A program made the translations under genes and the position numbers. 24,335 nt of DNA. Source: a virus. Its lineage: Duplodnaviria > Caudoviricetes. The stretch is from IMG/VR virus record IMGVR_UViG_3300020045_006464, positions 1 through 24,335 of that record; one strand, 5' to 3'. The notes under the pieces were generated by a model. It was not told the DNA's origin. It did not search any database and saw nothing but the letters and a program-made list of their open reading frames with translations. Of the stretch, positions 1,901 to 21,291 are shown piece after piece (positions within the stretch are counted from its first letter, which is position 1; each line of letters opens with the position of its first letter).

Positions 1901-1908
1901 TATATTTG
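1901..1908 (+). promoter_or_regulatory. Bacteroidota -7 promoter element
   Basis: TATATTTG matches TAnnTTTG, intergenic, upstream of ERF gene. Confidence 0.65.
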
Positions 1909-1921
1909 TTTTATCATAAAA

Positions 1922-2017
1922 ACATCACTGGTACTGATGTAGTAAAAAACACAAATAGGCTAATTTTGAAAGTAAGATGTACCAGACTTACGAGTAGAAG
2001 TTAGCCGTATTTTTTTT
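1922..2017 (+). promoter_or_regulatory. Structured leader 1 (kissing-loop/attenuator-like)
   Basis: ACATCA-[CTGGTAC]-TGATGT hairpin; long hairpin 1958-2006 with apical loop containing GTACCAG; T tract 2010-2017. Confidence 0.7.
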
Positions 2018-2021
2018 AAAT

Positions 2022-2678
2022 ATGAGTATTTACAACAAACTTCACTCAATCCAAGCGCAAGTTTTAGGATTAGGAAAAGACAAAGATGGTAGCGGTTACA
2101 GATACGTTACGGGGAGTAAGGTTTTAGACCACATTAAACCATTAATGAATAAAGAGGGTTTATTGTTAAAACAAGAAATTTTATCAATTGACAACGAAAG
2201 ACAAGATTACAAAGTATCTTTAAACGAAAACAAAGAAACAAAAGTTTGGCACGGAAAACCAAAAAGCGAAATCTTATCTAAAGTAATGATGCGTTTCACG
2301 TGGATTGATATTGATACGGGAGAAAAAGACGAAAACCTATTTGGTGCTAACGGTCAAAACGATTGGGATAAAGGCGTAGGAAGTGCGCTAACTTATGCAG
2401 AAAGATATTTTTTATTAAAGTACTTTCATATTTCTACTGACGAAGACGACATCGACAACCCAGAACGCAAAGCAGAGGAGCTAAAAGAGCAACAAGAAAA
2501 AGAACTCGCTCAAAAGTTAGAAAATGAAAGACTAACACAAATTAATAAAGATTTGGTAAAGTGTAAAACCGAAGAAGACTTAAAAACTAAATATTTAGCA
2601 CTTACACCCGAAGACCAAAAAATATTCGGTAAATTAGTAACAGAATTGAAATTAAAAATTAACGAACCAAAAAAATAA
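2022..2678 (+). CDS. erf: ERF-family single-strand annealing protein
   Basis: ERF signature GSALTYAERYFL followed by acidic EDDID. Confidence 0.9.
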   Translation: MSIYNKLHSIQAQVLGLGKDKDGSGYRYVTGSKVLDHIKPLMNKEGLLLKQEILSIDNERQDYKVSLNENKETKVWHGKPKSEILSKVMMRFTWIDIDTGEKDENLFGANGQNDWDKGVGSALTYAERYFLLKYFHISTDEDDIDNPERKAEELKEQQEKELAQKLENERLTQINKDLVKCKTEEDLKTKYLALTPEDQKIFGKLVTELKLKINEPKK

Positions 2679-2680
2679 TT

Positions 2681-3055
2681 ATGGAAGTACAAGGCAAAAT
2701 AAAAGCTATCAACGCTACACAACAAGTAAGCGCATCATTTAAAAAAAGAGAATTAGTAGTAACTACCCAAGACGAATACCCACAACACATTTTAATCGAA
2801 TTTACACAAGATAAATGCGATATTTTAGACAACTATTCAGTTGGTCAAGAAGTAACCGTAGGTATTAATTTACGAGGTCGAGAGTGGGTTAATCCACAAG
2901 GTGAAACAAAGTATTTTAACTCTATTCAAGGGTGGAGAATTGAGAAAGCGCAACAAGGCGAACTATCAAACCAAATGCCACCGATACCATCGGCACAAGC
3001 ATTTGCACCAGCTACAGACTACAACGAAGAAGAACACGACGATTTACCGTTTTAG
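2681..3055 (+). CDS. DUF3127-type SSB-like OB-fold protein
   Basis: FKKRELVV...YPQ...INLRGREW...YFNSIQGWRIE and acidic DDLPF tail. Confidence 0.85.
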   Translation: MEVQGKIKAINATQQVSASFKKRELVVTTQDEYPQHILIEFTQDKCDILDNYSVGQEVTVGINLRGREWVNPQGETKYFNSIQGWRIEKAQQGELSNQMPPIPSAQAFAPATDYNEEEHDDLPF

Positions 3056-3058
3056 AAA

Positions 3059-3217
3059 ATGCTTGAAGTCGAAGTAGTTAAATTTGACAGAAAAACAAAC
3101 AATCCAATTGCAAAAAAGACAATGCTTTTAAGTGATTGGATTATATTTAAAAAGTTTACAAAAGACTTTTATTATAAAGCCTATCAAATTGGTTTTTGTG
3201 AAATAAAAATAGAATAA
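3059..3217 (+). CDS. Hypothetical protein, 52 aa (MLEVEVVKFDRK...), not in ORF track
   Basis: Manual translation; starts 3 nt after the upstream stop. Confidence 0.55.
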   Translation: MLEVEVVKFDRKTNNPIAKKTMLLSDWIIFKKFTKDFYYKAYQIGFCEIKIE

Positions 3218-3221
3218 CGCA

Positions 3222-3250
3222 TTGTTATTTGAATTAATTTATTATATTTG
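3222..3250 (+). promoter_or_regulatory. Bacteroidota promoter (-33 TTG, -7 TATATTTG)
   Basis: TTG 3222-3224, 18 nt spacer, TATATTTG 3243-3250. Confidence 0.7.
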
Positions 3251-3340
3251 CTGTACCTCTCACAGTATTTAAAAATATTAAACGACCGTTACAGGATTTG
3301 AGAGGTGAGAGGCTCAATGATTGTAGCGGTTTTCGTTTTT
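3251..3340 (+). promoter_or_regulatory. Structured leader 2 (kissing-loop/attenuator-like)
   Basis: CCTCTCAC 3256-3263 complementary to loop GTGAGAGG 3305-3312 of long hairpin 3280-3338; T-rich 3' side. Confidence 0.7.
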
Positions 3341-3344
3341 AGTT

Positions 3345-3971
3345 ATGGCTCAAAATAAAAAATCTTTCGTTTTATATGCTGACTTAATAAAAAGCATTGA
3401 CCATTTAACACTTGAAGAAAAAGGAATGTTATTTCAACATTTGCTCGAGTATGTTAATGATTTAAACCCAATATTAACTGACAGACTTTTAATAACTGCG
3501 TGGAAGCCAATTGAACTGCAATTGAAAAGAGATTTAGTTAAATTTGAAGAAGTTAAGCTAAAAAGAAGTGATGCTGGTAAGCGTTCCGCGGAATCAAGAG
3601 CAAAGAAATCAGAAGAACAAAATTCAACAAATCCAACAAGTGTTGAAAGTGTTGAACAAACATCAACAAATCCAACTGATAATGTAAATGATAATGATAT
3701 TGATAATGTAAATGATACTGTAATAAATAATAAAAACGATTTATTTTATTTAGATTTGGTTAATTCTGAAATGTGGTTACAAGGTTGTGCAATGAATAAT
3801 ACTCCTAAGTTTAATTTAATTCAGGTAAAAGAAAAGCTACTTGCATTTAAAACCGACTTAAATTTAAAATTTGACTATAAAAAAAATAAAGCTGAATTTA
3901 GTTCGCATTTTATAAATTGGTTAAATCAACAAAAAAACGAAAAGAAAACAAATTATATATCTCCAGCATAA
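3345..3971 (+). CDS. Phage replication initiator (DUF6291-like N-terminus)
   Basis: KKSFVLY...LTLEEKGMLF N-terminus, RSDAGKRSA, repeat-rich DN linker, position before the helicase gene. Confidence 0.75.
   Translation: MAQNKKSFVLYADLIKSIDHLTLEEKGMLFQHLLEYVNDLNPILTDRLLITAWKPIELQLKRDLVKFEEVKLKRSDAGKRSAESRAKKSEEQNSTNPTSVESVEQTSTNPTDNVNDNDIDNVNDTVINNKNDLFYLDLVNSEMWLQGCAMNNTPKFNLIQVKEKLLAFKTDLNLKFDYKKNKAEFSSHFINWLNQQKNEKKTNYISPA
3624..3717. repeat. Iteron-like repeats inside initiator gene (putative origin 1)
   Basis: TCAACAAATCCAAC x2 (3624, 3663), AAGTGTTGAA x2 (3638, 3647), TGATAATGTAAATGATA x2 (3677, 3701), then AT-rich DNA. Confidence 0.55.
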
Positions 3972-5770
3972 TGGCAAATATTCAAAATTGGGATTTATTA
4001 GAATTACGCAAAACAAACGGACACGAAAAAATAAAGTGTCCTGTTTGTACCGATACACGTAAAAACAAGAACGACAAAAGTCTTTCGGTTTGGCACAATA
4101 ACGGAACTGCAAAATGTTTTAACGACGGTTGTAACGCTTTGTTTTTTCGTGATAGTGTACAAAAATCAATTATTCAAAGTAATTACACCTTGCCAAGTCA
4201 GGAATGGAGAAACTACACTAACTTATCTGATTCGATGGTTAAATGGTGTGAAGAAAAAAGGAAAATCAATCAATTTACTTTAAAACATTTTAATATTACC
4301 GAAGAAAAATATTATCAACCATCGCTTAATAAAGAGGTTACAAACATTGTATTTAATTATTTTGAAAGTGATACGCTGGTAAATAAAAAGTACCGTTCAG
4401 GCGATAAGAAATTTACACAATCAAAAAACGGAAAGCCAATATTTTATAATATTAATTCAATTATTGGAGAAACCGAAGCGTACATAGTTGAGGGAGAATT
4501 TGATGTTTTGGCTTTTTATGAAATAGGAATAGCCAATGTTATTTCAATTCCAAACGGAGCAAACGACAACGATAACTATTGGTTAAATTCTGAAAAGTAC
4601 ATCAAAGATATTAAAAAATTCTACATAGCAACAGATAACGACGAAAGTGGTAATAATGTAGCTGAAAAGATAGTTCAACGTTTAGGGCGTTGGCGTTGTG
4701 AAAGAGTTATTTTTGATGGTAAAGATGCAAACGATGATTTAATTAGTGGTGTTTTAAACAAAAGTATTTACAATCGAAAAAAGTACCCAATTAGTGGAAC
4801 TTTTACAAGTGAAGATTTACTCGAAAAAATGATTGAACTTCATAACAACGGATTACCGAATTGTCTAGAATTTAAAAATCCAACTTTGCAACCGTTGAAC
4901 AATATTTTTAAACTAATGTTTGGTCATTTGTGTATTGGTACGGGTATACCATCACACGGAAAATCCAATTTTACTGAATGGATGGTTTTAAACTACCTGC
5001 TTGAGAATGATTTAAAAGCGAGTTTCTTTTCACCTGAACATCAACCAATGGAATTACACTATTCTACATTTGTTCAAAAAGTAGTTGGTAAAAATTACTT
5101 CTACGAAATAAATGGAACTCCAAGAGTAAGTAAAGGCGAAATTATGCAGTTTCATAATTGGGCAAATCAGAAACTTTATTTAACCAGCCCCGAAGTTGGG
5201 GAATATGCAAATTGGGATTGGTTATTTGATAAATTTAAAGAGCAGTTAGTTTCATTTGGTATAAATATTTTTGTAGTTGATGCGTGGAACAAAGTTGAGT
5301 TCAATAATAATAAACCTGAAAGAGAAAACATCGGGCGTATTTTATCGAGACTTACACAATTTGCCCAGCAAAATAATGTTTTGATAATTGTTATCGCACA
5401 CCCTACAAAAATGAAACGTGAAAACGGAGTTTATGAATCTCCAACTTTATACGATGTTTCAGGTAGCGCAGATTTTAGAAATCAAACTCACGATGGATTT
5501 TGTATTTATAGATATTTTGAAAACGATGGATATACTTATTTTAAAAACTTAAAAACAAAATATTCGTTTCAGGGCGATATAGGCGCTCAAGTTGATTTTG
5601 ATTATCATATACCAAGCGGAAGATATTATTTGAGACACGGGCAACCACAAGATTATAATTTACTTGAAAAAATGAAACAAGATGAATTATTTGATGATGA
5701 AAAAGAAATGATTTTAATAAACCCAAATGAAGCGTTTGGAAATGATGATGATAGTGATGTTCCTTTTTAA
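3971..5770 (+). CDS. T7 gp4/Twinkle-like primase-helicase
   Basis: Cys4 zinc finger, TOPRIM (VEGEFD, TDND), SF4 Walker A GIPSHGKS, IAHPTK, VSGSA; likely start ATG 3971 overlapping the upstream stop. Confidence 0.92.
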   Translation: MANIQNWDLLELRKTNGHEKIKCPVCTDTRKNKNDKSLSVWHNNGTAKCFNDGCNALFFRDSVQKSIIQSNYTLPSQEWRNYTNLSDSMVKWCEEKRKINQFTLKHFNITEEKYYQPSLNKEVTNIVFNYFESDTLVNKKYRSGDKKFTQSKNGKPIFYNINSIIGETEAYIVEGEFDVLAFYEIGIANVISIPNGANDNDNYWLNSEKYIKDIKKFYIATDNDESGNNVAEKIVQRLGRWRCERVIFDGKDANDDLISGVLNKSIYNRKKYPISGTFTSEDLLEKMIELHNNGLPNCLEFKNPTLQPLNNIFKLMFGHLCIGTGIPSHGKSNFTEWMVLNYLLENDLKASFFSPEHQPMELHYSTFVQKVVGKNYFYEINGTPRVSKGEIMQFHNWANQKLYLTSPEVGEYANWDWLFDKFKEQLVSFGINIFVVDAWNKVEFNNNKPERENIGRILSRLTQFAQQNNVLIIVIAHPTKMKRENGVYESPTLYDVSGSADFRNQTHDGFCIYRYFENDGYTYFKNLKTKYSFQGDIGAQVDFDYHIPSGRYYLRHGQPQDYNLLEKMKQDELFDDEKEMILINPNEAFGNDDDSDVPF

Positions 5771-5912
5771 ACCTGAATATAATTTATTACTTAGTTATTA
5801 CGAAAGGCAATGCGAGTATTTTATAAATGGTTTTATTGATTACAACACATTTGAAAAACTTGAAAAAGAATATTTTAAAAAGAAAAAATTATTTACTATT
5901 AATTTAAACTAA
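5757..5912 (+). CDS. Hypothetical protein
   Basis: Short ORF; probable start ATG 5757. Confidence 0.45.
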   Translation: MFLFKPEYNLLLSYYERQCEYFINGFIDYNTFEKLEKEYFKKKKLFTINLN

Positions 5913-5918
5913 AAACCA

Positions 5919-6224
5919 ATGAGACCACAATTTAAAACAATCAAATCAAAAGTTAAACAAATTTTAACTGACCACAAAGAAACAAGAGACGACAACGCAA
6001 AATTAATTCACATATATTACATAGATTATTGTGACATAGAATTATACACAAGCTACGTTAAATTTATAGATAGGTTAATCCGAAAAGAAATACCATCAAT
6101 CGAAACGTTAACAAGGTTGAGCCGACAAGTTCAAGAGCAAAATCCTGAACTTCGTGGCGAAAAGTGGCGACTAAGAAAAACAGTAAAAACAGAAATAGCA
6201 AAAAAGGATTTAGGATATAAATAA
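5919..6224 (+). CDS. Hypothetical phage protein
   Basis: 101 aa ORF in operon context. Confidence 0.7.
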   Translation: MRPQFKTIKSKVKQILTDHKETRDDNAKLIHIYYIDYCDIELYTSYVKFIDRLIRKEIPSIETLTRLSRQVQEQNPELRGEKWRLRKTVKTEIAKKDLGYK

Positions 6225-6232
6225 AAATAATT

Positions 6233-6469
6233 ATGAAAGACGCTTTAAACAACGAAATAATATTCGGTAACAAATACGGATATTCAAGAAATCAAAACGG
6301 TTTCACTTATGTTAGGTTAGGTTTAGTAACAAATAGCACACCAAAAGGAATGGTTACAATGGAGGTTTATTCTTCAAAATATGCTTTGTATAATGATGAA
6401 TTAACCGAAGATGTTTTCTTAATTCAAAGAAAAATAACCATAAAACCAAATATGTTATTTCCGATATGA
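6233..6469 (+). CDS. Hypothetical phage protein
   Basis: 78 aa ORF with ATGA overlap to the next gene. Confidence 0.65.
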   Translation: MKDALNNEIIFGNKYGYSRNQNGFTYVRLGLVTNSTPKGMVTMEVYSSKYALYNDELTEDVFLIQRKITIKPNMLFPI

Positions 6470-6879
6470 AACTACTTGTAATAAAAACACCTCGCGGACT
6501 TTTGCCTGTTTACGATTCCGATATGGAAATCTACTCTAAAATTCCAATGAATAAAGAATTTGAAATAGAGTATGTAAAAAAAAGAAATTTGAAGTTTCAC
6601 AAAAAATACTTTGCTCTTTTGAAATTAGCATTTGAAAACCAATCAGATTACAGATTATTAGAAGACCTTAGACGTGATGTAATTATAACGGCTGGTTGGT
6701 ATGATGAAACAGTTAGCGTAATTACTGGAGAAGTTTTAAAAGTAGCCAAATCAATTTCATTCGCTCAAATGGATGAAGTAGAGTTTAGCCAACTCTACGA
6801 AAAAACAAAAGACGTAATTAGTCGATGGTTGGGAATTGATAATGAAACAATCGATAATGAAATAATGCAATTTTTCTAA
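6466..6879 (+). CDS. DUF1367-family (NinB/Orf-like) protein
   Basis: RNLKFHKKYFALL, AGWY, KSISFAQMDEVEFSQLY. Confidence 0.85.
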   Translation: MKLLVIKTPRGLLPVYDSDMEIYSKIPMNKEFEIEYVKKRNLKFHKKYFALLKLAFENQSDYRLLEDLRRDVIITAGWYDETVSVITGEVLKVAKSISFAQMDEVEFSQLYEKTKDVISRWLGIDNETIDNEIMQFF

Positions 6880-7523
6880 TGAAAGAACCAAAAAACAAAA
6901 ACTGTATCGAGTGCGGAAATCTATTTTTGCAGTATAACTCATTGGTTAAAGTTTGTTCTACTAAATGCGCTATTGAACACGCTAAAAAGAAAACTAAAAA
7001 ACAATCGCAAAAAGATTGGTCAAAAGAAAAAAAGGAACTGAAACAAAAACTAATGACTTTAACAGATTGGCAAAAGCTACTTGAAAAAGAAATTAATCAT
7101 ATCGCAAGGTTAATTGATTTTGGTAGCGGTTGCATAAGTTGCGGTGGTCACACAACACCCAGCGGAGGTCACTACCATAGCGTAAAGTCAAACGGAAGTA
7201 TTCGCTTTAATTTAGATAATATTCATTTACAAGACTATCACTGCAATGTTGAGAAGTCGGCAAACCTACATAACTACGATTTAGGCTTAATTGACAGGTA
7301 TGGTAAAGAATATTGGGAGTATGTGAAGTTTGACATCGTTCGCTTATTTCCGTTGCTTAAAATGGCTAAAAATGATTATTCACAAAAAATAAAAACAGCA
7401 CGTTCAATTGTCAAACATTTAAAACTTGAAAATAAAACCTACAATACAACTGAAAGATTAGAGTTAAGAAAAAAGTTTAACGCTATGATAGGAATATACA
7501 AGGCGGATTCACTTTACTTTTAG
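6879..7523 (+). CDS. ninG: NinG/Rap-like recombination endonuclease
   Basis: CxxC...CSxxCA, CISCG, GHYHS, RFNLDNIHLQ..CN. Confidence 0.85.
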   Translation: MKEPKNKNCIECGNLFLQYNSLVKVCSTKCAIEHAKKKTKKQSQKDWSKEKKELKQKLMTLTDWQKLLEKEINHIARLIDFGSGCISCGGHTTPSGGHYHSVKSNGSIRFNLDNIHLQDYHCNVEKSANLHNYDLGLIDRYGKEYWEYVKFDIVRLFPLLKMAKNDYSQKIKTARSIVKHLKLENKTYNTTERLELRKKFNAMIGIYKADSLYF

Positions 7524-7548
7524 ATTGCTATGATAAGGTTAGTTTTGG
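7502..7548 (+). repeat. Inverted anchor A2, left copy (partner 16160-16206)
   Basis: 47/47 bp identical in inverted orientation. Confidence 0.95.
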
Positions 7549-7576
7549 AAATATAATAACTTAAAAAATAAATAAA

Positions 7577-7777
7577 ATGACAAACAAACAAATTAAAAAC
7601 AAGCTAATAGAAGCTGGTTTAAAAAACTTACACGATTTTGGTTATGAATACGCAACCAAAGAAAACATTTTAACCGATGAAATTTATAGTAAATTTTTCA
7701 AATCTATGCTTTATGATAATTTAGGTCACGACGATAAAATAGATATTGCTATAAATGAATTATTGACTGTTATTTAG
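7577..7777 (+). CDS. Hypothetical phage protein
   Basis: 66 aa ORF between anchors A2 and B. Confidence 0.65.
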   Translation: MTNKQIKNKLIEAGLKNLHDFGYEYATKENILTDEIYSKFFKSMLYDNLGHDDKIDIAINELLTVI

Positions 7778-7803
7778 AATTTGTATAAATAACGGTTGGG
7801 TGT
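7769..7803 (+). repeat. Inverted anchor B, left copy (partner 16121-16155); internal palindrome
   Basis: 34/35 bp identical; GTTATTTA-N9-TAAATAAC. Confidence 0.93.
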
Positions 7804-7846
7804 TAAAATAGTTAATATAAATTAAAATTAATTAAAAAGTATTTTG

Positions 7847-7854
7847 TAGATTTG
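7847..7854 (+). promoter_or_regulatory. Bacteroidota -7 promoter element
   Basis: TAGATTTG in an AT-rich intergenic region. Confidence 0.55.
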
Positions 7855-7877
7855 TTGAAACTTTAAAAATATAGATT

Positions 7878-8108
7878 ATGTTTAACACCACATCAAATAA
7901 AACAACAATTAACAATCCCGCTACTGGAATTATTCAACGTTCAAATGAAAAATCTTATTTTTTAACTTTTCAAAGAGGTAGTAGTTTAGAAGATAAGATT
8001 TTTTCAGACAACCCAAAACATAAAGACAAAGAAGTTTCTGTTTTACAAGCTTTATTAATGGATGGTCAATGGCTTTTATGTGAATTAGTTTTAAAATCAG
8101 ATTTATAA
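7878..8108 (+). CDS. Hypothetical protein
   Basis: 76 aa ORF after promoter motif. Confidence 0.6.
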   Translation: MFNTTSNKTTINNPATGIIQRSNEKSYFLTFQRGSSLEDKIFSDNPKHKDKEVSVLQALLMDGQWLLCELVLKSDL

Positions 8109-8112
8109 AATT

Positions 8113-8286
8113 ATGCAAGAAAATAAAAAACCAACAGTTGGAAGACCATCGCAAAAAGATAAAGAGGTGTTGTTAATTCAAGTTAGATACCCTGATGGAA
8201 GAAAGTCAAACAACAAAACATTTAGAGCAACAACCTTTGATTTTGATAAGGTTGTGGATGGGGTAAAGGAATTAATTAAAGAGTAG
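8113..8286 (+). CDS. Hypothetical protein, 57 aa (MQENKKPTVGRPSQK...), not in ORF track
   Basis: Manual translation; fills gap; GRP motif. Confidence 0.6.
   Translation: MQENKKPTVGRPSQKDKEVLLIQVRYPDGRKSNNKTFRATTFDFDKVVDGVKELIKE
8231..8286 (+). repeat. Inverted anchor C, left copy (partner 15737-15792)
   Basis: 55/56 bp identical; ends at the stop codon of 8113-8286. Confidence 0.95.
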
Positions 8287-8334
8287 CGGAACCCGAAAAG
8301 CTAAAGAGTAGGGAAAATATAAATATATAAAATT

Positions 8335-8610
8335 ATGTACACATTAAGAAAAATTACGAGTAAAAAAGTTGAGTTCAACCAAAGTTTAGGATTAAGTTAT
8401 TCTGTTTTTAAAAAACAAAGTAATGAAGATGCTTTTTTAAAAATGTACATTGACTTTTTTCAATTAGAAAAAGAAAAAAAAGTTGATGTAGGCACTTGTT
8501 ATGCTTTTGTCGTTTCAGAAAATGCAAAAGAAACATATCCTTTATTCAAAGATGAAAAAAATTATATAGTGAACAGCGATGGAAAAACTTTTTCTAATTT
8601 AACTTATTAA
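8335..8610 (+). CDS. Hypothetical phage protein
   Basis: 91 aa ORF. Confidence 0.65.
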   Translation: MYTLRKITSKKVEFNQSLGLSYSVFKKQSNEDAFLKMYIDFFQLEKEKKVDVGTCYAFVVSENAKETYPLFKDEKNYIVNSDGKTFSNLTY

Positions 8611-8614
8611 AAAA

Positions 8615-8923
8615 ATGAAAAACGAGTTAATAAAAGATATTGATGGTATCTATGAGTTGTTAAAAGATTTAACAAAATCGGGGAGTTGTGGAGAACATGG
8701 AGGTTCGGCAGATTATGAAGACGCAACCAATTTAGTAGATATAATTTTAAGGTCATCTATTTGCAGAAATTTATTATTTTTATTTTGGAATAGAGAAAAA
8801 AACGCTTGCCTTTTGAGCGATTTTCAAAGAAAGCAACAAGAAGATGAGTTTAATAATTGGCTGCTTAATGTAGATTTTGAATATTTAATTAGAGAAATTA
8901 ATAAAACCCGATTACAAGGATAA
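8615..8923 (+). CDS. Hypothetical protein
   Basis: 102 aa ORF, tight packing. Confidence 0.6.
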   Translation: MKNELIKDIDGIYELLKDLTKSGSCGEHGGSADYEDATNLVDIILRSSICRNLLFLFWNREKNACLLSDFQRKQQEDEFNNWLLNVDFEYLIREINKTRLQG

Positions 8924-8937
8924 TTGTTAAGAATATT

Positions 8938-9213
8938 ATGAAAAATTTAATAAATGATTTTTTTAATTACGCTTATGGAGAATTTAAAGGAGAGTTAAAT
9001 ATACTTGAGGCTACTGAACAAGAAAAATTAGAAAAACACTTTCAAAAATGGTATGATAGCAGAAAACTATCTTTTGAGGAATCTGTAAAACCTCTGATGA
9101 AATATTTAGGAGAAAATCATCATCCACATACATCGGTTTACGTCAGAAACGATTTAGCTGAACTTTTGGAAGGTAAAGAGGTTTTTGGAACAAAAGATTA
9201 TGTTAAGGATTAA
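8938..9213 (+). CDS. Hypothetical phage protein
   Basis: 91 aa ORF, tight packing. Confidence 0.65.
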   Translation: MKNLINDFFNYAYGEFKGELNILEATEQEKLEKHFQKWYDSRKLSFEESVKPLMKYLGENHHPHTSVYVRNDLAELLEGKEVFGTKDYVKD

Positions 9214-9233
9214 TTTTTAAAAACTAACCAAAA

Positions 9234-9497
9234 ATGAAACAAACAATTTTTACAGTCTACGTCTTAATGCAATCACAATCGGATTGCGACGAGGCGAAAA
9301 GAATATGTGAGGAGTATGGGTTGCCGTACATTGAAAAGTATTTTGAATTTTGGAATATTTTAAAATACAACAACGCGTTTGGATGTTACACCACAAGCGA
9401 CAAGTTTTGTGTTCATGTAGCATCGAAAAGAGAAAAAACAGAAGTCTCCCTCACCCGTTTTAAAGAACTATGTGAGGAATATAAATTAAATAAATAG
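9234..9497 (+). CDS. Hypothetical protein, near-identical to 15212-15490 (anchor D)
   Basis: About 255 bp at roughly 95% identity in inverted orientation; two E/K substitutions in the shared core. Confidence 0.85.
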   Translation: MKQTIFTVYVLMQSQSDCDEAKRICEEYGLPYIEKYFEFWNILKYNNAFGCYTTSDKFCVHVASKREKTEVSLTRFKELCEEYKLNK

Positions 9498-9504
9498 AAT
9501 TATT

Positions 9505-9873
9505 ATGAAAACAATTACAGTTAAAGAAGCATTAGAACAAGGTTATGAATTATGTGGATATGAAAATTTAGAAAATCAATCTTTGATGAGTATTTCTGAT
9601 TTGTCAGAAGAAGATTTTGAGCCATATCACAACGGCAAACTATGTGTTGCACATAAACAACCAAACTCAACTACAATTTCATCTGAAGAAGTTATAGAAT
9701 GGCTTGTGGATAGATATTTCGATACAGAAGGAAATCCTGATGATGATAGTCACGATATGGAATTATGCTTTAAAGAGCAAAAAGAAGTTATTAAAGAATT
9801 CGTGTCGAAAATGAATGATATTTATTCAAAAAAACAATGGTTCTTTTTAGCTGACTTACAACTCATTCCTTAA
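9505..9873 (+). CDS. Hypothetical acidic protein
   Basis: 122 aa ORF between anchors E and F. Confidence 0.7.
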   Translation: MKTITVKEALEQGYELCGYENLENQSLMSISDLSEEDFEPYHNGKLCVAHKQPNSTTISSEEVIEWLVDRYFDTEGNPDDDSHDMELCFKEQKEVIKEFVSKMNDIYSKKQWFFLADLQLIP

Positions 9874-9885
9874 CACCTAAAACAA

Positions 9886-10496: not shown

Positions 10497-10498
10497 TT

Positions 10499-14079: not shown

Positions 14080-14089
14080 AATTAAATAT

Positions 14090-14257
14090 ATGAATTGGCA
14101 ACCACACTTAAAAATGAGAATTACTGATGGTAAACAAACTTTTCAACACAATTTTATGAAGTCAGACCCATCAGAAAATGAAATTATATTAGCTTTTGAA
14201 AACTTAAAAGAGAAATTTCATAACAACGAAAAATTAATAGTTAGTACTGGATATTAA
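14090..14257 (+). CDS. Hypothetical protein
   Basis: Likely start ATG 14090 (MNWQPHLK). Confidence 0.5.
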   Translation: MNWQPHLKMRITDGKQTFQHNFMKSDPSENEIILAFENLKEKFHNNEKLIVSTGY

Positions 14258-14296
14258 AAAATTAAATAGAAATGAAAAACAACAGAAAAAACAGAA

Positions 14297-14333
14297 AATT
14301 AAAATATAGGTGGTTGTGGTTTAGTGATTGGTT
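14297..14333 (-). repeat. Inverted anchor H, right copy (partner 10462-10498)
   Basis: 35/37 bp identical; marks the inner end of the minus-strand block. Confidence 0.92.
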
Positions 14334-14509
14334 ATTTGTACCGCCATTCCATTTTTAAAAACAAATTGAGGGCAAATATCTTTTTTGGTGTACCTGCATA
14401 AATACCCTAACCAAACTTTCCATTTTACTATTTTTGATAGACTTAATTTTTCAACTGCTTCTTCAATGGATTTGTAAGTTGGAGTTATTACTTCTTCTTT
14501 TGTTTTCAT
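14321..14509 (-). CDS. Hypothetical protein sharing its first 23 nt with 10098-10496 (anchor G)
   Basis: 14487-14509 is the reverse complement of 10098-10120 (MKTKEEVI). Confidence 0.55.
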   Translation of the reverse strand: MKTKEEVITPTYKSIEEAVEKLSLSKIVKWKVWLGYLCRYTKKDICPQFVFKNGMAVQITNH

Positions 14510-14700
14510 TTGTTTGACTTATCGTTTATAACTAATTGAACAAGCGCTTGAACTATTAAATAAGCAAGCAACATTCCAAATCTATCGTTCCAATCATATT
14601 TTGGAATTTCTAATATCCAAATTATATCCCATTTCACATAAGATACAATCAAGTATAAAACTATACTTACAATAAACGGTATTTTGATTTTTTCTTTCAT
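14506..14700 (-). CDS. Small two-TM membrane protein
   Basis: Two hydrophobic stretches; start lies in anchor F. Confidence 0.6.
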   Translation of the reverse strand: MKEKIKIPFIVSIVLYLIVSYVKWDIIWILEIPKYDWNDRFGMLLAYLIVQALVQLVINDKSNK

Positions 14701-14714
14701 TTGTTTTAGGTGTT
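14695..14714 (-). repeat. Inverted anchor F, right copy (partner 9872-9891)
   Basis: AACACCTAAAACAAATGAAA 20/20. Confidence 0.85.
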
Positions 14715-14906
14715 GGTTAGTTTCTTGTAAACATAATTTACGACTTCGTAAATAATAAATCCGATAAGAAGAAAAGCGACTATGATTAATATCATATTCA
14801 CTACAACTCTTAAATTATCTATTGCTAATCCTATAAAAAACACAGCGATAAGCAAAAAGCACGATGTTAATAACCAATTTACAAATCGGTCTAAAAATTT
14901 TTCCAT
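14706..14906 (-). CDS. Small two-TM membrane protein
   Basis: Two hydrophobic stretches. Confidence 0.6.
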   Translation of the reverse strand: MEKFLDRFVNWLLTSCFLLIAVFFIGLAIDNLRVVVNMILIIVAFLLIGFIIYEVVNYVYKKLTNT

Positions 14907-14924
14907 AATTCTATTTATTTAATT
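14905..14924 (-). repeat. Inverted anchor E, right copy (partner 9484-9503)
   Basis: AATTAAATAAATAGAATTAT 20/20; AT-rich but in the expected nested position. Confidence 0.75.
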
Positions 14925-15210
14925 GTTTCCATTCCTCTGCTAATTCTAATGATAAGATGTAGTAACACTCAAGAGATGAATATTCATCAATATTGTTTTC
15001 TAAAACACTTATCAATGAATCGTAAGAATTATATCGCTCTCTTAGTTTTCGCAAAGTTTTTAATGCACTTTCTCTTGTAATAGAAAAGTAATTTTTATAT
15101 TCAACCATCATCCATTGTAAAAAGCTATTCATTTGTTCTTTATCGAAGCTTTTAGCACAGGTAATTAATTCTGTTTTAATTTTCTCTTTCAAATTATTTT
15201 TAATCTCCAT
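14911..15210 (-). CDS. Hypothetical protein
   Basis: 99 aa ORF, tight packing. Confidence 0.6.
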   Translation of the reverse strand: MEIKNNLKEKIKTELITCAKSFDKEQMNSFLQWMMVEYKNYFSITRESALKTLRKLRERYNSYDSLISVLENNIDEYSSLECYYILSLELAEEWKQLNK

Positions 15211-15211
15211 T

Positions 15212-15490
15212 TTATATTTTTTTAAGGCTATTTAATTTATATTCCTCACATAGCTCTTTAAAGCGGGTGAGGGAGACTTTGGTTTTTTCTCTTTTCGATG
15301 CTACGTGAACACAAAACTTGTCGCTTGTGGTGTAACATCCAAATGCGTTGTTGTATTTTAAAATATTCCAAAATTCAAAATACTTTTCAATGTACGGCAA
15401 CCCATACTTCTCACATATCCTTTTCGCCTCGTCGCAATCCGATTGGCTTTGCATTAATACGTAGACTGTAAAAATTGTTTGTTGGTTCAT
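15212..15490 (-). CDS. Hypothetical protein, second copy of 9234-9497 (anchor D)
   Basis: Near-identical protein; likely start ATG 15490. Confidence 0.85.
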   Translation of the reverse strand: MNQQTIFTVYVLMQSQSDCDEAKRICEKYGLPYIEKYFEFWNILKYNNAFGCYTTSDKFCVHVASKREKTKVSLTRFKELCEEYKLNSLKKI

Positions 15491-15491
15491 T

Positions 15492-15731
15492 TTATTTATC
15501 GTTACGGTATCCAACTTTGTTTAAAAACTCTTTTGCGTATTTTTGAACTTGTAATACAGAATATTCTTTTGCGTTAAATCTTTGACATAAAGCCATATCT
15601 ATTTCGCCAAGCAATTGTTCTGTTAGTTCGCACATTTCTTTTAAATTTTCTAAAGCTATTTCATCAATCCTTGAATCTGCTTGAGGTCTAACATTTCCTA
15701 TTAGTTTTTTTACTACGTCATAATTTGTCAT
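15492..15731 (-). CDS. Hypothetical phage protein
   Basis: 79 aa ORF starting just after anchor C. Confidence 0.65.
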   Translation of the reverse strand: MTNYDVVKKLIGNVRPQADSRIDEIALENLKEMCELTEQLLGEIDMALCQRFNAKEYSVLQVQKYAKEFLNKVGYRNDK

Positions 15732-15736
15732 AATCT

Positions 15737-15792
15737 CTACTCTTTAATTAATTCCTTTACCCCCTCCACAACCTTATCAAAATCAAAGGTTG
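15737..15792 (-). repeat. Inverted anchor C, right copy; non-coding remnant of gene 8113-8286
   Basis: 55/56 bp identical to 8231-8286. Confidence 0.93.
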
Positions 15793-15804
15793 GGGAACGG
15801 AAGG

Positions 15805-16047
15805 TTATATTTTAATTTTTTTATCTAAATCTCTTAAAAGTGTTAAATGATTTCCAATAGAAACTATTTTGTTTAGCAATAGCGGTTTTAAAAACATTAA
15901 TGCACTTTTTTCTATTTGTTCAAGGTTATTCGGGATAAGTTTCCCGTTTTCAATATTTGCGTAGTTGCCCTGATTTACTCCTAACCTTTCAGCTAAAACA
16001 TATTGTTTAACTCCAACTTCTTTTCTAATCTGTTTTACTAATTCCAT
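15805..16047 (-). CDS. XRE/Cro-family HTH regulator
   Basis: IRKEVGVKQYVLAERLGVNQGNYANIENGK. Confidence 0.85.
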   Translation of the reverse strand: MELVKQIRKEVGVKQYVLAERLGVNQGNYANIENGKLIPNNLEQIEKSALMFLKPLLLNKIVSIGNHLTLLRDLDKKIKI

Positions 16048-16120
16048 AAATAATTTGTTTTTAATTACAACAAAAATAATAATTTATTTAATACAAAATA
16101 CATTTATAATATTTATTTCC

Positions 16121-16206
16121 ACACCCAACAGTTATTTATACAAATTCTAAATAACCCCACCAAAACTAACCTTATCATAGCAATCTAAAAGTAAAGTGAA
16201 TCCGCC
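16121..16206 (-). repeat. Inverted anchors B (16121-16155) and A2 (16160-16206), right copies
   Basis: Separated by 4 nt here but by 220 nt in the left arm. Confidence 0.93.
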
Positions 16207-16386
16207 ACTTTTATTGGTGTAGTGGAATGTGTAAATCCAGTGGTAGTATTCGGTCTTATTTCTCCACGTTGCGCCTTTGGTTAGGTCTTTTTGCAGTCCT
16301 ACGTAGCGGAAACTGTTGCCATCTAAATCGGTTTGGATGGATTGGTTTAGGTGGTAGGTGTGGTTATTGTAGGTTATTGAGTTCAT
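16147..16386 (-). CDS. Hypothetical protein
   Basis: 79 aa ORF overlapping the helicase stop region. Confidence 0.6.
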   Translation of the reverse strand: MNSITYNNHTYHLNQSIQTDLDGNSFRYVGLQKDLTKGATWRNKTEYYHWIYTFHYTNKSGGFTLLLDCYDKVSFGGVI

Positions 16387-18018
16387 ATAGTGGTAATTTA
16401 AAACGGTTTCTTAAATCTATTTGTTTTTGCGGTAAATTGTAAATGCTATTTAAAATAATTGTTTCAGTTTCGTTTTTAATAATGTTATTTTCAACGTGTT
16501 CAATGGATTTATAAACATCATAAACTGATTCGCATATAAAAAATAATACTTTCTTTTCGGTCATTTCGGGCAACGTTTCTTTTTGGTATTCAGTCAATCT
16601 TCCTTTAGGCAATTTCAACTCTAACGCAAAATAAAAAGACGTGTTAGAATAAAAAACCGTGTTGTCGGGCAATCCGTTCTTTGATGCGAAATGCACCCAT
16701 CTATCTTTTATAAATGCCTTACCGCTATTTTGTCGCCACCAAAAATAATTAGTCTTTTTAAGATAGTTGTTTACATCGTCTTGTAAATCTGATTCAAGTT
16801 TATACTCTTTTCCATCATATAAGTCCAATATCGAACTAATGCTTTTAAGATAAATTTCTTTTTCCTCTGTTAAAACTAATGTTTTCCGCTTTTCATTATC
16901 AGTATCAATATTTAGGTCTTTGTCTAAAACACGCCCAATTTTTTTATTAAAAGTAAATATTTTCCTTTCATCGGGTAATCCGTGTTCTTTTATATTCTCG
17001 CAACAATCTAAAATAATACAGTCAGATTTTCCGTTTATTATTGATTCGGAAATATTTAAACCTAACAACCTAATACCACGACCAGCACATTGAATATATT
17101 TTTTCCAGCTTTTAGTAGCGGTTGCAAAAATTACACAACTAACCAATGGTTCATCAAACCCAGCCGTTAATATTTCTATTGATATTAAACCACTAATATT
17201 TTTTAATCGTAAATCATTAATTAATTTATCCCGTTGCTTGTCTTTAGTATCTGCGGTAATTATTCCAACTTTAACACCTTGTTTTTCAAACTCAACCGCT
17301 AATTCTTTACAATGATTTTTATTAACCGCAAAACAAATAAAACTACGGCTTTCTCCAAATTCAATATAGCTATTAACTATTGAGTTATTTATATCAATTC
17401 GGTTTATAGTTTTTTCTAAATCTTTATTGTCGTAATCGTTACCGCTAATTTTTACATCGCTTAAATTAACTGACATCGGAGTAAAACATTTGAACGGTGT
17501 TAAAAATCCTAATTCAATCAAATCTTTAGTTTGATAATCGTCTATAATCGAATCCCATCCATCAAGCAAAAATCCTTTATCATCAACTGGAGTAGCCGAC
17601 AATCCGATAAAAATAGCATTTGGAAACCGAGTAAATAAAGATTGGATTAAATTACTATCGTAAGCGTAATGCACCTCGTCAATAATAACTATTTTAGGTT
17701 CTATTATTTCAGTATTTATAAGCGTATGAATTGATGCTACTAAACAAGTATAATTTTCATCAAAGTTTTTATTTTCGCCTTGTAGGTAGCTTGGGTTTAA
17801 ATCTAAAAACTTTTTATAAGACTGCTCCGCTAATGTAATCCTATGAGTTGTAAATAGTACTTTGTTATTTTTTAACTGTGCGTTTTTAATAATATCGTAA
17901 GAAAGTATTGTTTTACCAAAACCAGTTGGAGCGGAAATAAGTATTTTTTTGTTTTTAGCGTTTAAACTATCTTTTATTTTTTGTTTAACTACTTCTTGAG
18001 TTGATGTAATGTATACAT
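16364..18018 (-). CDS. SF2 DEAD/DEAH helicase with C-terminal VRR-NUC-like nuclease; 1-nt frameshift near the start
   Basis: Frame open upstream of 17674 with APTGFGKT (17909-17932) and IIDEVH; SAT, AGFDEP, QCAGRGIR; C-terminal GLPD...ELK; ATG 18018 out of frame by one base. Confidence 0.85.
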
Positions 18019-18021
18019 AGA

Positions 18022-18474
18022 TTAAAAATAATTTGCCATATTAATAGCTGATTGAAATTGTTTGTCTTTTTCAAATTTTTCTTTAATCAATTTATAATTG
18101 ATAGGTAAAAAATTATAATTTAAAAAACCTCTATTCTGATTATTGTCTTTAGGTTTAAATAAACTAATTAATTCATATTCGTAAAACTCTAAATCCTTAT
18201 TAATTAAATCTAATCCATAAAAAGAAACATAATTAAAAATCTTACCGTTAACGTGTGGTGTTCTACAATTATAAATTCTATCAAATATATTTTGACTAAT
18301 ACCGATATAAGTTATAACATTATCGCACCACAAAAAATAAATTCCTTTTTTGTTTTCAAAATCTGTATTAAAACTATACTTTTTTAAATCTAAAACTGAT
18401 TTAAAAACCGTTGAAAAATCTTTGTTTTTTATTGCTTCTTGTATCATAATTTTATTTTTTTCTAACTGTAACAT
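18022..18474 (-). CDS. GIY-YIG nuclease-domain protein
   Basis: KGIYFL...TYIGIS...R...E..LI...P..N; start uncertain. Confidence 0.75.
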   Translation of the reverse strand: MLQLEKNKIMIQEAIKNKDFSTVFKSVLDLKKYSFNTDFENKKGIYFLWCDNVITYIGISQNIFDRIYNCRTPHVNGKIFNYVSFYGLDLINKDLEFYEYELISLFKPKDNNQNRGFLNYNFLPINYKLIKEKFEKDKQFQSAINMANYF

Positions 18475-18712
18475 AGTGTAACCTACGTTACACCTAAATG
18501 TTACACCTATTTTTCAATGTTTATAGGGTCTGCGGAGCAAAAGTGTAACCTACGTTACACTTTTTGATTTTTGAAAAAATATTTTTTTTTTTTTATTTTT
18601 ATTTTTCATTTCGGTTTTACTGTAACCTACGTTACACTTTCCTTTGTTAAGTACCGTAAACATTGAAAAACTACTGTAACATTAGTGTAACATTTTACTG
18701 TAACGTGTAACC
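18467..18712. repeat. Palindromic iteron array (putative origin 2)
   Basis: TGTAACCTACGTTACAC x3 (18477, 18544, 18621), further TGTAAC half-sites, 14 bp inverted repeat 18510-18523/18657-18670, T-rich core 18561-18608. Confidence 0.8.
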
Positions 18713-21006
18713 TATTTTTTCTCAATTTGTTTAAGCAATCTGTTTATTTGCATTCTACTCAATCCTAAAATCTCAGCAGTCTTGCTTCTGTTAAAATTCG
18801 GGTTTTCCTCGTAAATCAATTTCAACTTCTCTAAACTGTTTTTTCCACCTTTAGAAACCGTTTTTAAATCGTTAGCTTCGACTGAATTTATTTTAACTTT
18901 CTTTGCAGTAGCAATAAAATAATTACTTAATTTTTCCGCTTTTAATACACTTTCTTTTGAAATAAGCAAACTATTACCACCGCTACCGAAAAACTCGTCG
19001 AAAATATGTATTAGTAGCGCAAAACGTGGTATATAAGATTTTTGCTTCGGGTACATAGATTTAAGATACTCATTTTCGTTATCATCATTTTGAAAATCAG
19101 TAATGATATTAAAAATTCGCATCCATTCAGTTTTTGCATCATTTGAGAATTTAGCAATCATTGATTCAATTGAATCTTCTTTGTCTCGTTTAATTACTGA
19201 TTTTAAACTATCATAAAAACAAATAATATTGTTTTTGTACCAATCTAATATTTCGTATTCCAATTCATTTTCATTGTATTTTTCAACTACTGCATCAGGG
19301 AAAGAAAGTAACATCCTATCCATAAAACCATTACTTTTATTTTCATCAGTATAAAAGTTGTTAAATATATCGGGTTGAATACCGCCGAGTACTGGTATTA
19401 ATGGTTTATCGATAAATGAACCTTTACGGGTTAAACGATTTAAACTTACTGATTTTCCCGACCAACACGATAGCCAAAACTCCAAATCAGAACCAGCACG
19501 ATATTTATTCATATCTTTTAACCAACCCGCTAATTCATCTTTAAAAACACCTACCGAGTTGTCGCTCTCTTGGTGTAAATCAACTAACGCTTCTAATGTA
19601 ATATCATTCGCTATAAATTGTGTTTTAATTGGTTTCGATACTTCGGGATAGTCTTTTTTCTCCTTAGCTGGTAGGTTTTCGTAAAACTCATATTTTTCAA
19701 GTTCCTTAAAATATTTTTTAATTTCACGTGAATTTATTTTTTGTAGTGGAAAAATAATATTATTTATCGATGGTGTTTTACCGATTCCAGCCTTACCAAC
19801 TAACGACATCCAAACAGTAGCGTTTTCAATCCATCCACGTTTTACTTCAATTTCGATACTATTGCCAATGCAAACAGAAATTAACCATAACATTGAACAA
19901 CCCATATAATCAATATTTGAATCGAGTTTTGAATTACACTCTAAAATATAATTTTGTATTGGTTCGGGAAAAATATCTAATGGAAATTTTAAGTCGTCAT
20001 TTTTTATATTGTAAGTTTCGGCAACTGGTTCTATTAAAGTTTTTGGCGGTTCGATTTTTATACGTGAACCGTAACCTAATTTATAAAGTTCCTTTGCGCT
20101 TTCTGAAAAATCCCCGTTATAGTACTTGTAACTAAATGCTATGAAAGGTGTTATTAGTTTTTCGTGTGGATAAATTGTACCAGTTGAAAATAAGTACATA
20201 CAACCGCTATCTTTATAAATATAACCGCTATGCGCCGAAGTTGCACCGTGTCTTTTTATAACAATATGTTTATGATTGTTAGACACTATTTTAAACTCCG
20301 AGCCGACAATATCTAAAATATCGGTTTTATCATTATAATCTTGCCACGGGGTTAAGTCTGATTTTATAAACTCCGTTTTTTCTTTTTTAGGCTCTAATGT
20401 AACTTCCTCAACGTAATTATACATTTTAGAAAATGACATTAATACATCACGGTCATCATCTGAAATATACTGAATATCAAAATAAGAAAGTTTAGACACT
20501 TGATTATCGGGATAAGCAAAAATATAACCGCCCGTTCCACGTGTTTCAATTATCGCTTCTTTGTGTCCTTTTAATGATGCTATTTTAGTATTTCCTTGAA
20601 CTCTTTTAGATTTAAAAAGAATATGAAAACCCTCGTTTTTTGTTTTATAAATTACAAATTTGTCGTCAAAATCTAAAATATTATCTTTTAAGTTTTGCAA
20701 ATATTCATCCCAAAAAGCAACTTTTTCTTTTGCGGTTGAAAACACTTTTAAATCTACATCAAAAACCTCCAAATCTTCAAAACCCGTAATGATTCCAAAG
20801 TTAGTTGTAGGTTGAATTTCACGAACTATTCCATCTTTGTCAGTCCATTTTTTTCCGCCTTTATACCCGTATTGCTCCGTGAACTGTTTAATAGATATTT
20901 TTTTATCTTGGTATTTTTTCCACGTAAAATTTGGTATCTTATCATCGCCAACGGTAAGGATAGAAAAATAGTCTAAAAATTTAAGTGCTTTTTGAAGTTC
21001 TAACAT
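18712..21006 (-). CDS. Prim-Pol (AEP) domain fused to DUF3987-type NTPase/helicase with C-terminal HTH
   Basis: FDVD, KTKNEGFH, IETRGTGGY; GKAGIGKT, DELAG, GGIQP, GFMDR; TAEILGLSRMQI. Confidence 0.88.
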   Translation of the reverse strand: MLELQKALKFLDYFSILTVGDDKIPNFTWKKYQDKKISIKQFTEQYGYKGGKKWTDKDGIVREIQPTTNFGIITGFEDLEVFDVDLKVFSTAKEKVAFWDEYLQNLKDNILDFDDKFVIYKTKNEGFHILFKSKRVQGNTKIASLKGHKEAIIETRGTGGYIFAYPDNQVSKLSYFDIQYISDDDRDVLMSFSKMYNYVEEVTLEPKKEKTEFIKSDLTPWQDYNDKTDILDIVGSEFKIVSNNHKHIVIKRHGATSAHSGYIYKDSGCMYLFSTGTIYPHEKLITPFIAFSYKYYNGDFSESAKELYKLGYGSRIKIEPPKTLIEPVAETYNIKNDDLKFPLDIFPEPIQNYILECNSKLDSNIDYMGCSMLWLISVCIGNSIEIEVKRGWIENATVWMSLVGKAGIGKTPSINNIIFPLQKINSREIKKYFKELEKYEFYENLPAKEKKDYPEVSKPIKTQFIANDITLEALVDLHQESDNSVGVFKDELAGWLKDMNKYRAGSDLEFWLSCWSGKSVSLNRLTRKGSFIDKPLIPVLGGIQPDIFNNFYTDENKSNGFMDRMLLSFPDAVVEKYNENELEYEILDWYKNNIICFYDSLKSVIKRDKEDSIESMIAKFSNDAKTEWMRIFNIITDFQNDDNENEYLKSMYPKQKSYIPRFALLIHIFDEFFGSGGNSLLISKESVLKAEKLSNYFIATAKKVKINSVEANDLKTVSKGGKNSLEKLKLIYEENPNFNRSKTAEILGLSRMQINRLLKQIEKK

Positions 21007-21009
21007 AGC

Positions 21010-21168
21010 TTAATTATTTACTGGTTTTTCTTTACCACATTTTGAACATTTATCAATCTGATAATCGTCGTAATACCAAATGTTTAAATGCAAAAAACGA
21101 TTACCAATAGATTGATAATATCTAATAAAGCTATGTTTACAAAATAACTGTTTAAAAAATAGTTTCAT
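21010..21168 (-). CDS. Small zinc-binding protein, 52 aa (DUF1660-like), not in ORF track
   Basis: Manual translation MKLFFKQLFCKH...CSKCGKEK. Confidence 0.65.
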   Translation of the reverse strand: MKLFFKQLFCKHSFIRYYQSIGNRFLHLNIWYYDDYQIDKCSKCGKEKPVNN

Positions 21169-21179
21169 AATTTAATTGT

Positions 21180-21278
21180 ATAAAATGAGAAAACTCCTAG
21201 ATAGCCATCACACATATCTAAGAGTTTCTCGGTGCTAATATAAAATTAGCAATATCTTACGTGTAAGTGATGGATTAC
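21180..21278 (-). promoter_or_regulatory. Structured leader 3 (kissing-loop/attenuator-like)
   Basis: Minus strand GTAA-[TCCATCAC]-TTAC; long hairpin 21187-21230 with loop containing GTGATGG; T-rich 3' side. Confidence 0.7.
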
Positions 21279-21283
21279 GATTA

Positions 21284-21291
21284 CAAACATA
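21284..21291 (-). promoter_or_regulatory. Bacteroidota -7 promoter element
   Basis: TATGTTTG on the minus strand. Confidence 0.6.

Follow-up and report, generated by a model that had tools for sequence, protein, structure and literature searches.

The locus described here raises the question of whether three leaders in one phage DNA belong to a single family of structured RNAs and, if so, how such an RNA would act on the genes behind it. The leaders lie in a 24,335-nucleotide stretch of a virus (Caudoviricetes; IMG/VR record IMGVR_UViG_3300020045_006464), referred to below as the window and numbered from its first letter. Each is about 100 bases long and begins with a TAnnTTTG box, which is followed by a long terminator-like hairpin and then by the ATG of the first gene; a 7-8 letter 5' word is complementary to the tip of the hairpin in the predicted RNA fold. 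To our knowledge, early-gene control in Bacteroidota phages has been little described. Judged from their sequences, the leaders are a real, uncatalogued and widespread phage family, a variant of terminator-loop attenuators with a predicted function. Leader design, covariation, strand and position were established directly. The leader is read, by analogy, as a self-contained transcription attenuator in which pairing of the two words would antiterminate, with a probability of roughly 0.55.

An earlier note on this DNA had described three word pairs with their boxes and U tracts, and a long terminator-like hairpin 5' of each operon; all were confirmed in the sequence (Table 1). In all three leaders ViennaRNA left most or all of the 5' word in a loop and put the 3' word at the apex of its hairpin, with fold z-scores of -2.7 (leader 1), -1.7 (leader 2) and -3.6 (leader 3). 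The GAA/AGTA internal loop of leader 1, whose AGTA is unchanged in 7/7 aligned relatives, presumably represents a bulged-G motif. The kissing-loop topology assigned to all three leaders was retained for leaders 1 and 3 and given up for leader 2, whose 5' hairpin is probably absent from the transcript. The Bacteroidota sigma-A box sits at -12 to -5 (PMC9723704; statements on this and the other cited papers refer to the available portions of their text), which puts the start of leader 2 near 3255 and its 5' arm CTGT (3251-3254) outside its own transcript. Because box and word are separated by 5 bases, the first hairpin seen in the window is probably incidental, and the pairing of leader 2 would be a 5'-end pseudoknot; its closest relative (L422) has no 5' stem. 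Leader 3 had been placed before the Prim-Pol operon. The operon does follow, but a 52-amino-acid (52-aa) open reading frame (ORF) comes first and the linker holds an extra hairpin.

A detector combining 5' hairpin, complementary loop, long hairpin, U run and box was built after the three leaders had been seen. It gave 5 matches in the window, of which exactly three, leaders 1-3, had both box and U run; 40 shuffled windows gave no match with box and U run. As the detector was written post hoc, the weight rests on independent tests at other loci. The box alone occurred at chance level in the window (42 matches against 45.9 expected), and a scan of the window for sigma-70 promoters and short terminators was uninformative. 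A weaker 7-base loop complement at 3097-3229 on the minus strand has a 5-base loop and no box and is probably due to chance.

A leader family in related phages

A total of 202 loci containing a relative of the initiator, ERF or Prim-Pol protein were fetched. Detector matches with box and U run numbered 95 on the gene strand and 1 on the opposite strand, and 81 distinct leaders with 57 words were found among them. The leader's own complement was at least 7 bases long in 70/81 leaders, against 114/6480 swapped pairs (1.8%). The family is spread among Bacteroidota-type phages and comprises about 90 distinct leaders. Four of 94 leaders were dropped as doubtful for the word-position and counter-promoter counts, leaving 90, and a fifth was dropped for the divergence, insert and spacing counts, leaving 89.

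Three tests demanded no pairing or structure beforehand. Among 233 box-plus-terminator candidates, 95 carried their own complement of at least 7 bases, against 0.7% of swapped pairs. Upstream of Prim-Pol genes the box was found in 37/66 regions and a terminator-like hairpin in 33 of these 37; the complement was present in all 33 regions with box and hairpin (26 by detector, 7 by eye), the exception in layout being L154, with the 5' word upstream of the box. A pattern consisting of the box and the two words of leader 2 gave 54 matches in IMG/VR and metagenomes, 51 of them with a terminator-like hairpin carrying the word in its loop. The corresponding pattern for leader 1 gave 10 matches, one genuine, and a looser word pattern gave 121 loci, none of which passed the detector. 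Chance matches at this rate (9/10 and 121/121) would suit ordinary leaky terminators, with complementary words arising by chance or from a DNA-level repeat. That explanation is highly improbable in view of the swap, strand, shuffle and covariation controls and of the loop polarity and strand-specific non-canonical inserts described below.

A more sensitive scan gave 44 matches in 30/38 near-complete genomes and no match in 0.54 Mb of shuffled DNA. Four of the 44 were judged by eye to be due to chance, leaving 29/38 genomes with a leader. Among cultured phages, the Baltic Flavobacterium phages hattifnatt9-1 and mumin6-3 have two leaders each and 11b has one; no leader was found within the 7-kb stretches scanned from P12024L, phi10:1 and phi18:3. 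This distribution over scanned genomes and cultured phages makes the family open to immediate testing.

The earlier note could assign no Rfam family, and the leaders indeed gave no Rfam match at E<=1 (window) or E<=0.5 (six loci). A covariance model of the leader 3 lineage gave leader 1 a weak score (E 0.17) and did not pick up leader 2. Applied to 151 genomes of the family of an Algibacter metagenome-assembled genome (24 candidates scored per genome), it gave 2 matches, both adjoining host genes and neither with the pairing. A protein scan of GTDB yielded 2 loci only. No description of the leader family was found in the open-access literature. Fremin 2023 lists 10,006 viral candidate RNAs (PMC10690425), and parts of the family may be among them, unnamed there, the candidate alignments being outside the literature search.

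The word pairing was preserved by compensatory changes in three lineages, which, together with the many distinct leaders, bears out the proposal that the leaders form a family of structured, cis-acting RNAs whose loop complementarity covaries. In the leader 1 lineage (7 sequences) pairing is complete (100%) at all 7 pairs, with a two-sided change in 3/7. In the leader 3 lineage 19 sequences were aligned, three of them visibly out of register; pairing stands at 94.7%, and 5/7 pairs change on both sides. The cell count was reached by no shuffle and the pair count by 75/500. In an initiator lineage (11 sequences) 3/7 pairs change, with one G-U intermediate. The shuffles used for these lineages take no account of relatedness among the sequences. 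Among 14 relatives of leader 2, a two-sided change was found at 13/13 consensus pairs of the long hairpin. Two leaders of cultured phages (L203:14346 of hattifnatt9-1 and L473:3968 of mumin6-3) share a near-identical scaffold and differ in the word by two compensated pair changes. In a contig 93% identical to the window over the Prim-Pol region, the promoter is kept, the leader body and word differ and the 52-aa ORF is absent (L123:4878-4993 compared with window 21172-21291).

Leader anatomy and predicted attenuation

The first hairpin begins 4-5 bases 3' of the box, at or beside +1, in 41/89 leaders. In the leader 2 lineage a hairpin encloses the word in 23/26 leaders where the gap between box and word exceeds 6 bases, and in 0/5 where the word is at the RNA start. 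The complementarity spans 6-9 bases and mostly stops at the loop edges. Unpaired loop bases lie mainly 5' of the word (56:8 and 52:16), a polarity that is lacking in chance matches from shuffled DNA (27:24 and 29:21). In pseudoknot geometry, loop bases 5' of the word are the expectation if stacking is on the 3' strand; the polarity is of the kissing type.

Among the long stems, 17 of the leader 3 type are near-perfect and the others are interrupted. Of 82 interrupted stems, 28 carry a tandem GA, triple GA or AGTA/GAA insert, against 0/82 on the reverse strand and a mean of 0.7 in shuffles; the insert is AGTA/GAA in leader 1 and tandem GA in leader 2. We take these inserts to be sheared GA and bulged-G elements with a helix-continuing shape. 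The arm from the word to the U tract measures 15-19 bases, more than one helical turn, in 27/27 scored structure-blind cases; ordinary terminator-like hairpins of the same genomes peak at 10-11 bases from the loop centre (33/93), with a long tail. The median tether length is 19 single-stranded bases, the stack comprising about 28 pairs. All lineages retain a G+C stem end with a T run behind it. In most members 5-25 bases separate the hairpin end from the ATG, with 7 in one lineage and 33-52 in some members. Pairing strength showed no correlation with hairpin strength (rho -0.15, p=0.16). In an alignment of 46 sequences the only invariant positions are promoter bases. Stems longer than one helical turn, many purine-rich non-canonical inserts and kissing-type loop polarity are new here.

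From this design we infer transcription from the box, a stop at the U tract and antitermination by pairing. The polymerase would start about 5 bases 3' of the TAnnTTTG box and make the 5' word first, usually in the loop of a small hairpin. Once the tip of the long hairpin emerged from the polymerase, the two words could pair before the 3' arm was complete, closing a ring with a tether of about 19 bases. Finishing the 15-19 base stem by the U tract would then stretch the tether, and the 3' strand held by the polymerase would have to wind through the ring. Pairing first would give read-through into the operon; zipping of the stem first would release an RNA of about 95 bases. The leader would probably hold read-through to a partial level for genes sensitive to dose (initiators, primases, annealing proteins, HNH nucleases), and this level would depend on polymerase speed or on a host factor reading the shape. 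Such a ring would account for the long helix, the free letters of the words and the dispensable first hairpin.

Several points weigh against antitermination by pairing. The direction of the effect is argued from analogy and geometry. The tested inserts are absent from 54/82 two-hairpin stems, and the contrast in arm length with ordinary terminators is weak (median 21 against 12.5 bases, n=10 and 93, p=0.053). The tether would need about 4.3 Å per base in a fully stacked complex, which is taut but feasible, so pairing and a complete stem may coexist. U tracts are often interrupted (at most 5 T of 8 in 23/71), and T-rich sequence 5' of ATG may be common in these genomes anyway.

The same tether length and imperfect U tracts would also fit a role after synthesis, in which the pairing protects or compacts either the ~95-base RNA or the 5' end of the mRNA, or acts on translation or on RNase processing at the hairpin, and leaves termination unaffected. 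The closeness of the hairpin end to the ATG in most members adds to this, as does the precedent of the T4 gene 32 leader, in which a pseudoknot gives translational autocontrol (PMC10690425). We consider a post-synthesis role unlikely, though of some weight: the G+C stem end and T run are kept throughout, the ATG is 33-52 bases away in some members, and the unrelated first genes oppose autogenous control by a gene product.

The closest parallel to the attenuator reading is the guanidine-IV riboswitch (GGAM-1) and its variant Gd4v, in which two hairpins form a loop-loop pseudoknot (PMC7736828, PMC9788692), as in leaders 1 and 3 and most members; leader 2, probably lacking the first hairpin, departs from this. 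In guanidine-IV the loop-loop pairing hinders the terminator, and growth of the stem shortens the linker (PMC11611296); a competition between pairing and completion of the terminator stem is likewise proposed for the phage leaders. In sequence, the 3' hairpin of the phage leaders resembles an intrinsic terminator, with a G+C stem end and a T run, and in both cases unrelated genes follow. Unlike guanidine-IV, the phage leaders have no match to a curated Rfam model and precede replication and nuclease genes; their pairing letters are free (57 words), whereas the guanidine-IV loop bases are conserved and bind the ligand. In L104:8297 and L104:9816 the terminator-like hairpin is branched and carries the complementary word in a side loop, which recalls the extra hairpin of Gd4v.

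This topology, the likeness of the L104 leaders to the extra-hairpin form of Gd4v, and the conservation of non-canonical inserts within lineages would also suit an orphan riboswitch or protein-read switch, in which a small molecule, ion or host protein at the loop-loop junction or purine-rich insert stabilizes read-through. The sole difference from the attenuator reading is the specific ligand. We regard such a switch as improbable: guanidine-IV function relies on highly conserved loop nucleotides (PMC7736828), whereas the 30 distinct 7-base words have no fixed position in common, and the inserts vary from lineage to lineage or are missing. Should attenuation by pairing be correct, the leaders would apply the switching principle of guanidine-IV with pairing letters that can be exchanged freely and with no conserved pocket for a ligand.

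The general layout of an intrinsic-terminator attenuator is present: promoter, terminator-like hairpin with U tract, first gene. The zipper-type attenuator of pLS20 shares the promoter, structured leader and terminator 5' of the first gene of a mobile element; there the antiterminator is an extended stem, in contrast to the 6-9 bases of complementarity in the phage leaders (PMC13401043).

Loop words, downstream genes and the search for a partner

The first genes behind the leaders encode Prim-Pol, several initiator families, ERF and other recombination proteins, helicases, nucleases (HNH, GIY-YIG, endonuclease VII) and small unknown proteins, in a list biased by the three query proteins (initiator, ERF, Prim-Pol). 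A phrog_33177 protein of 68-83 amino acids is repeatedly the first gene (L008:2667, L021:4787, L043:6285, L045:6106, L047:8368, L067:6578, L422:840). The word of leader 2 precedes initiators, a helicase, an HNH nuclease, endonuclease VII and small proteins, and that of leader 1 precedes ERF in the window, a NUMOD4-HNH gene in L416 and phrog_33177 in L067. Because one word precedes many types of gene, the letters mark leader lineage and not an operon address. The words also diverge no faster than the stems (0.215 against 0.215 and 0.222 for 33 pairs chosen on unpaired divergence), and the operon-specific loop addresses proposed earlier were abandoned. In 27 pairs chosen on stem similarity the values were 0.164 for words against 0.12 for stems; fast word change had been hinted at by one lineage and was ruled out on the wider set.

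From its sequence contexts, the leader behaves as a portable promoter-plus-valve cassette, the valve function being predicted. If this holds, the family would offer a phylum poor in genetic parts a natural library of compact expression valves that rarely match one another (1.8% cross-matches). It would also account for mobile HNH genes bringing their own dosage control.

Antisense partners of the IncB/IncI, P4 CI or P1 C4 type had also been proposed. In the IncB/IncI-alpha rep leader the loop of a hairpin pairs with a 7-8 base word some distance away, and an antisense RNA is involved; P1 C4 is an antisense system with short complementary words in a phage leader. An opposite-strand sigma-A box within 150 bases was found for 12/90 leaders (16.2 expected) and at no fixed position, the sigma-A box being the one promoter type sought, and no partner RNA was found. 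For 28 words, 110 further copies were counted in their own genomes and 78 for controls, the excess coming from two words; within other hairpin loops there were 3 copies, against 2.3 for controls. An excess of ATTGCAC and CCGCCAA in three genomes was rejected as a partner: the copies have no hairpin context, and ATTGCAC is equally common in genomes without that word. Other copies of the leader words in the window lie inside ORFs. No protein family tracks the leader (best p=0.08 in 38 genomes, with only 8 negatives and low power). Tyrosine integrase (PF00589) was found in 5/50 records and, below the cut-off, in 1 of 37 scanned for leaders. With no counter-promoter excess, partner RNA, fast words or tracking protein and with few tyrosine integrases, a cis mechanism is left. 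The data weigh against addresses and antisense control and, as far as tyrosine integrases are a guide, against prophage immunity.

The IncB/IncI-alpha leader thus shares a hairpin loop and a distant word in the leader of a replication gene; unlike it, the phage leaders have no counter-promoter excess, their partner word lies upstream at the RNA start, and their hairpin is terminator-like, which points to control of transcription and not of translation. With P4 CI and Gifsy-1 IsrK they would have in common that a phage leader carries short complementary words and gates replication genes with them through premature termination (PMC4825925), as proposed here. They differ from P4 CI and P1 C4 in having only two copies of the word per leader and, as far as the sequence shows, no processed RNA with targets on both sides; no partner was found and most carriers have no tyrosine integrase.

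A partner could be dispensed with if released leader RNAs acted in trans in the style of P4 CI (PMC4825925), blocking the cis pairing of nascent leaders with the same word; termination would rise as copies accumulated, giving feedback or exclusion of like phages. Such self-titration requires no separate gene, consistent with the negative partner searches. Words do differ within one genome in the multi-leader cases listed, but differences of this kind are expected by chance, as only 1.8% of swapped pairs match at 7 bases or more. The hattifnatt9-1 and mumin6-3 leaders, with one scaffold and compensated changes in the word, are in its favour; the equal divergence of words and stems and the retention of one word across 31 distinct leaders are not. 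Most carriers lack a tyrosine integrase and cis pairing should be faster than trans, and we hold self-titration to be distinctly unlikely. A factor-free 'lasso' form of the attenuator, in which any 7-8 base word closes the ring, a stem of more than one turn cannot wind and folding order decides, would let released RNAs jam nascent leaders with the same word in trans, as a per-operon RNA copy counter for lytic phages; this extension is doubtful.

Feature coordinates and layout of the window

Table 1. Leader elements and the genes behind them (minus-strand features are given 5' to 3').
Feature	Position	Strand	Basis or remark
Leader 1, Bacteroidota sigma-A -7 box TATATTTG	1901-1908	+	Sequence; predicted +1 at about 1913
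Leader 1, 5' hairpin, 6 bp	1922-1940	+	Folding; lineage covariation; loop word CTGGTAC 1928-1934
Leader 1, long hairpin	1954-2011	+	Folding; apical word GTACCAG 1979-1985
Leader 1, internal loop GAA/AGTA	1968-1970/1993-1996	+	Within long hairpin
Leader 1, T8 tract	2010-2017	+	Sequence; ATG at 2022
ERF single-stranded DNA-annealing protein	2022-2678	+	First gene after leader 1
DUF3127 SSB-like protein	2681-3055	+	After ERF, downstream of leader 1
Leader 2, -7 box TATATTTG	3243-3250	+	Sequence; predicted +1 at about 3255
Leader 2, 5' word CCTCTCAC	3256-3263	+	Probably single-stranded at RNA 5' end
Leader 2, long hairpin	3286-3329	+	Loop 3303-3312 holds GTGAGAGG 3305-3312
Leader 2, tandem GA	3295-3296/3319-3320	+	Inside long hairpin
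Leader 2, interrupted U tract TTTTCGTTTTT	3330-3340	+	Sequence; ATG at 3345
DUF6291 initiator-like protein	3345-3971	+	First gene after leader 2
DUF6291 protein and primase/helicase region	3345-5770	+	Downstream of leader 2
G+C hairpin 5' of leader 3 box	21328-21296	-	Looks like terminator of upstream operon
Leader 3, -7 box TATGTTTG	21291-21284	-	Sequence
Leader 3, 5' hairpin, 4 bp	21278-21263	-	Folding; covariation; loop word CCATCAC 21273-21267
Leader 3, extra A+T-rich linker hairpin	21251-21233	-	Typical of Prim-Pol lineage
Leader 3, long hairpin	21230-21187	-	Folding; word GTGATGG 21211-21205
Leader 3, split U tract TTTT CTC A TTTT	Hairpin and tract to 21182	-	ATG at 21168
52-aa ORF	21168-21010	-	First ORF after leader 3
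Prim-Pol/DUF3987 primase-helicase	21006-18712	-	After 52-aa ORF, downstream of leader 3

ORFs of phage families fill the plus strand to 14079 (methylase, ERF, SSB, primase/helicase, NinB, NinG, terminase) and the minus strand from 23300 to 14300 (exonuclease, Prim-Pol, helicase). The closest cultured relatives of the primase/helicase are those of Flavobacterium phages (63-64% identity). The window has a mosaic look at 14258 and 23059-24335, with opposed early regions and inverted repeats of 221 and 255 bases common to both arms; its final kilobase is a tail fragment with a G+C content above the remainder. The contig thus has the appearance of two related early regions combined into a mosaic. 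Leaders 1 and 2 and leader 3 probably originate in different phage early regions joined in one contig, and may never occur together in one cell.

An Rfam DUF805b RNA was matched above the gathering score (E 1.5e-8) at 8283-8314 on the plus strand, 20 bases 5' of a 91-aa ORF. It was considered as a nut-like partner of the leaders and rejected, being matched in just 4/50 related records; nothing on DUF805 was found in the open-access literature. RNA runs searched with window positions 1700-5800 gave no run listed as containing the stretch.

Three 20-base direct repeats with inverted copies lie at 18477-18706, directly after the Prim-Pol gene, and from their sequence look like an iteron-type replication origin. 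The helicase gene (16364-18020, minus strand) has an apparent start near 18018, but its long ORF opens only at 17674, and a frameshift or assembly error is likely. A 223-aa ORF at 23127-23798 consists of a methylase C-terminus fused to unrelated sequence and lies beside a neck gene of higher G+C content.

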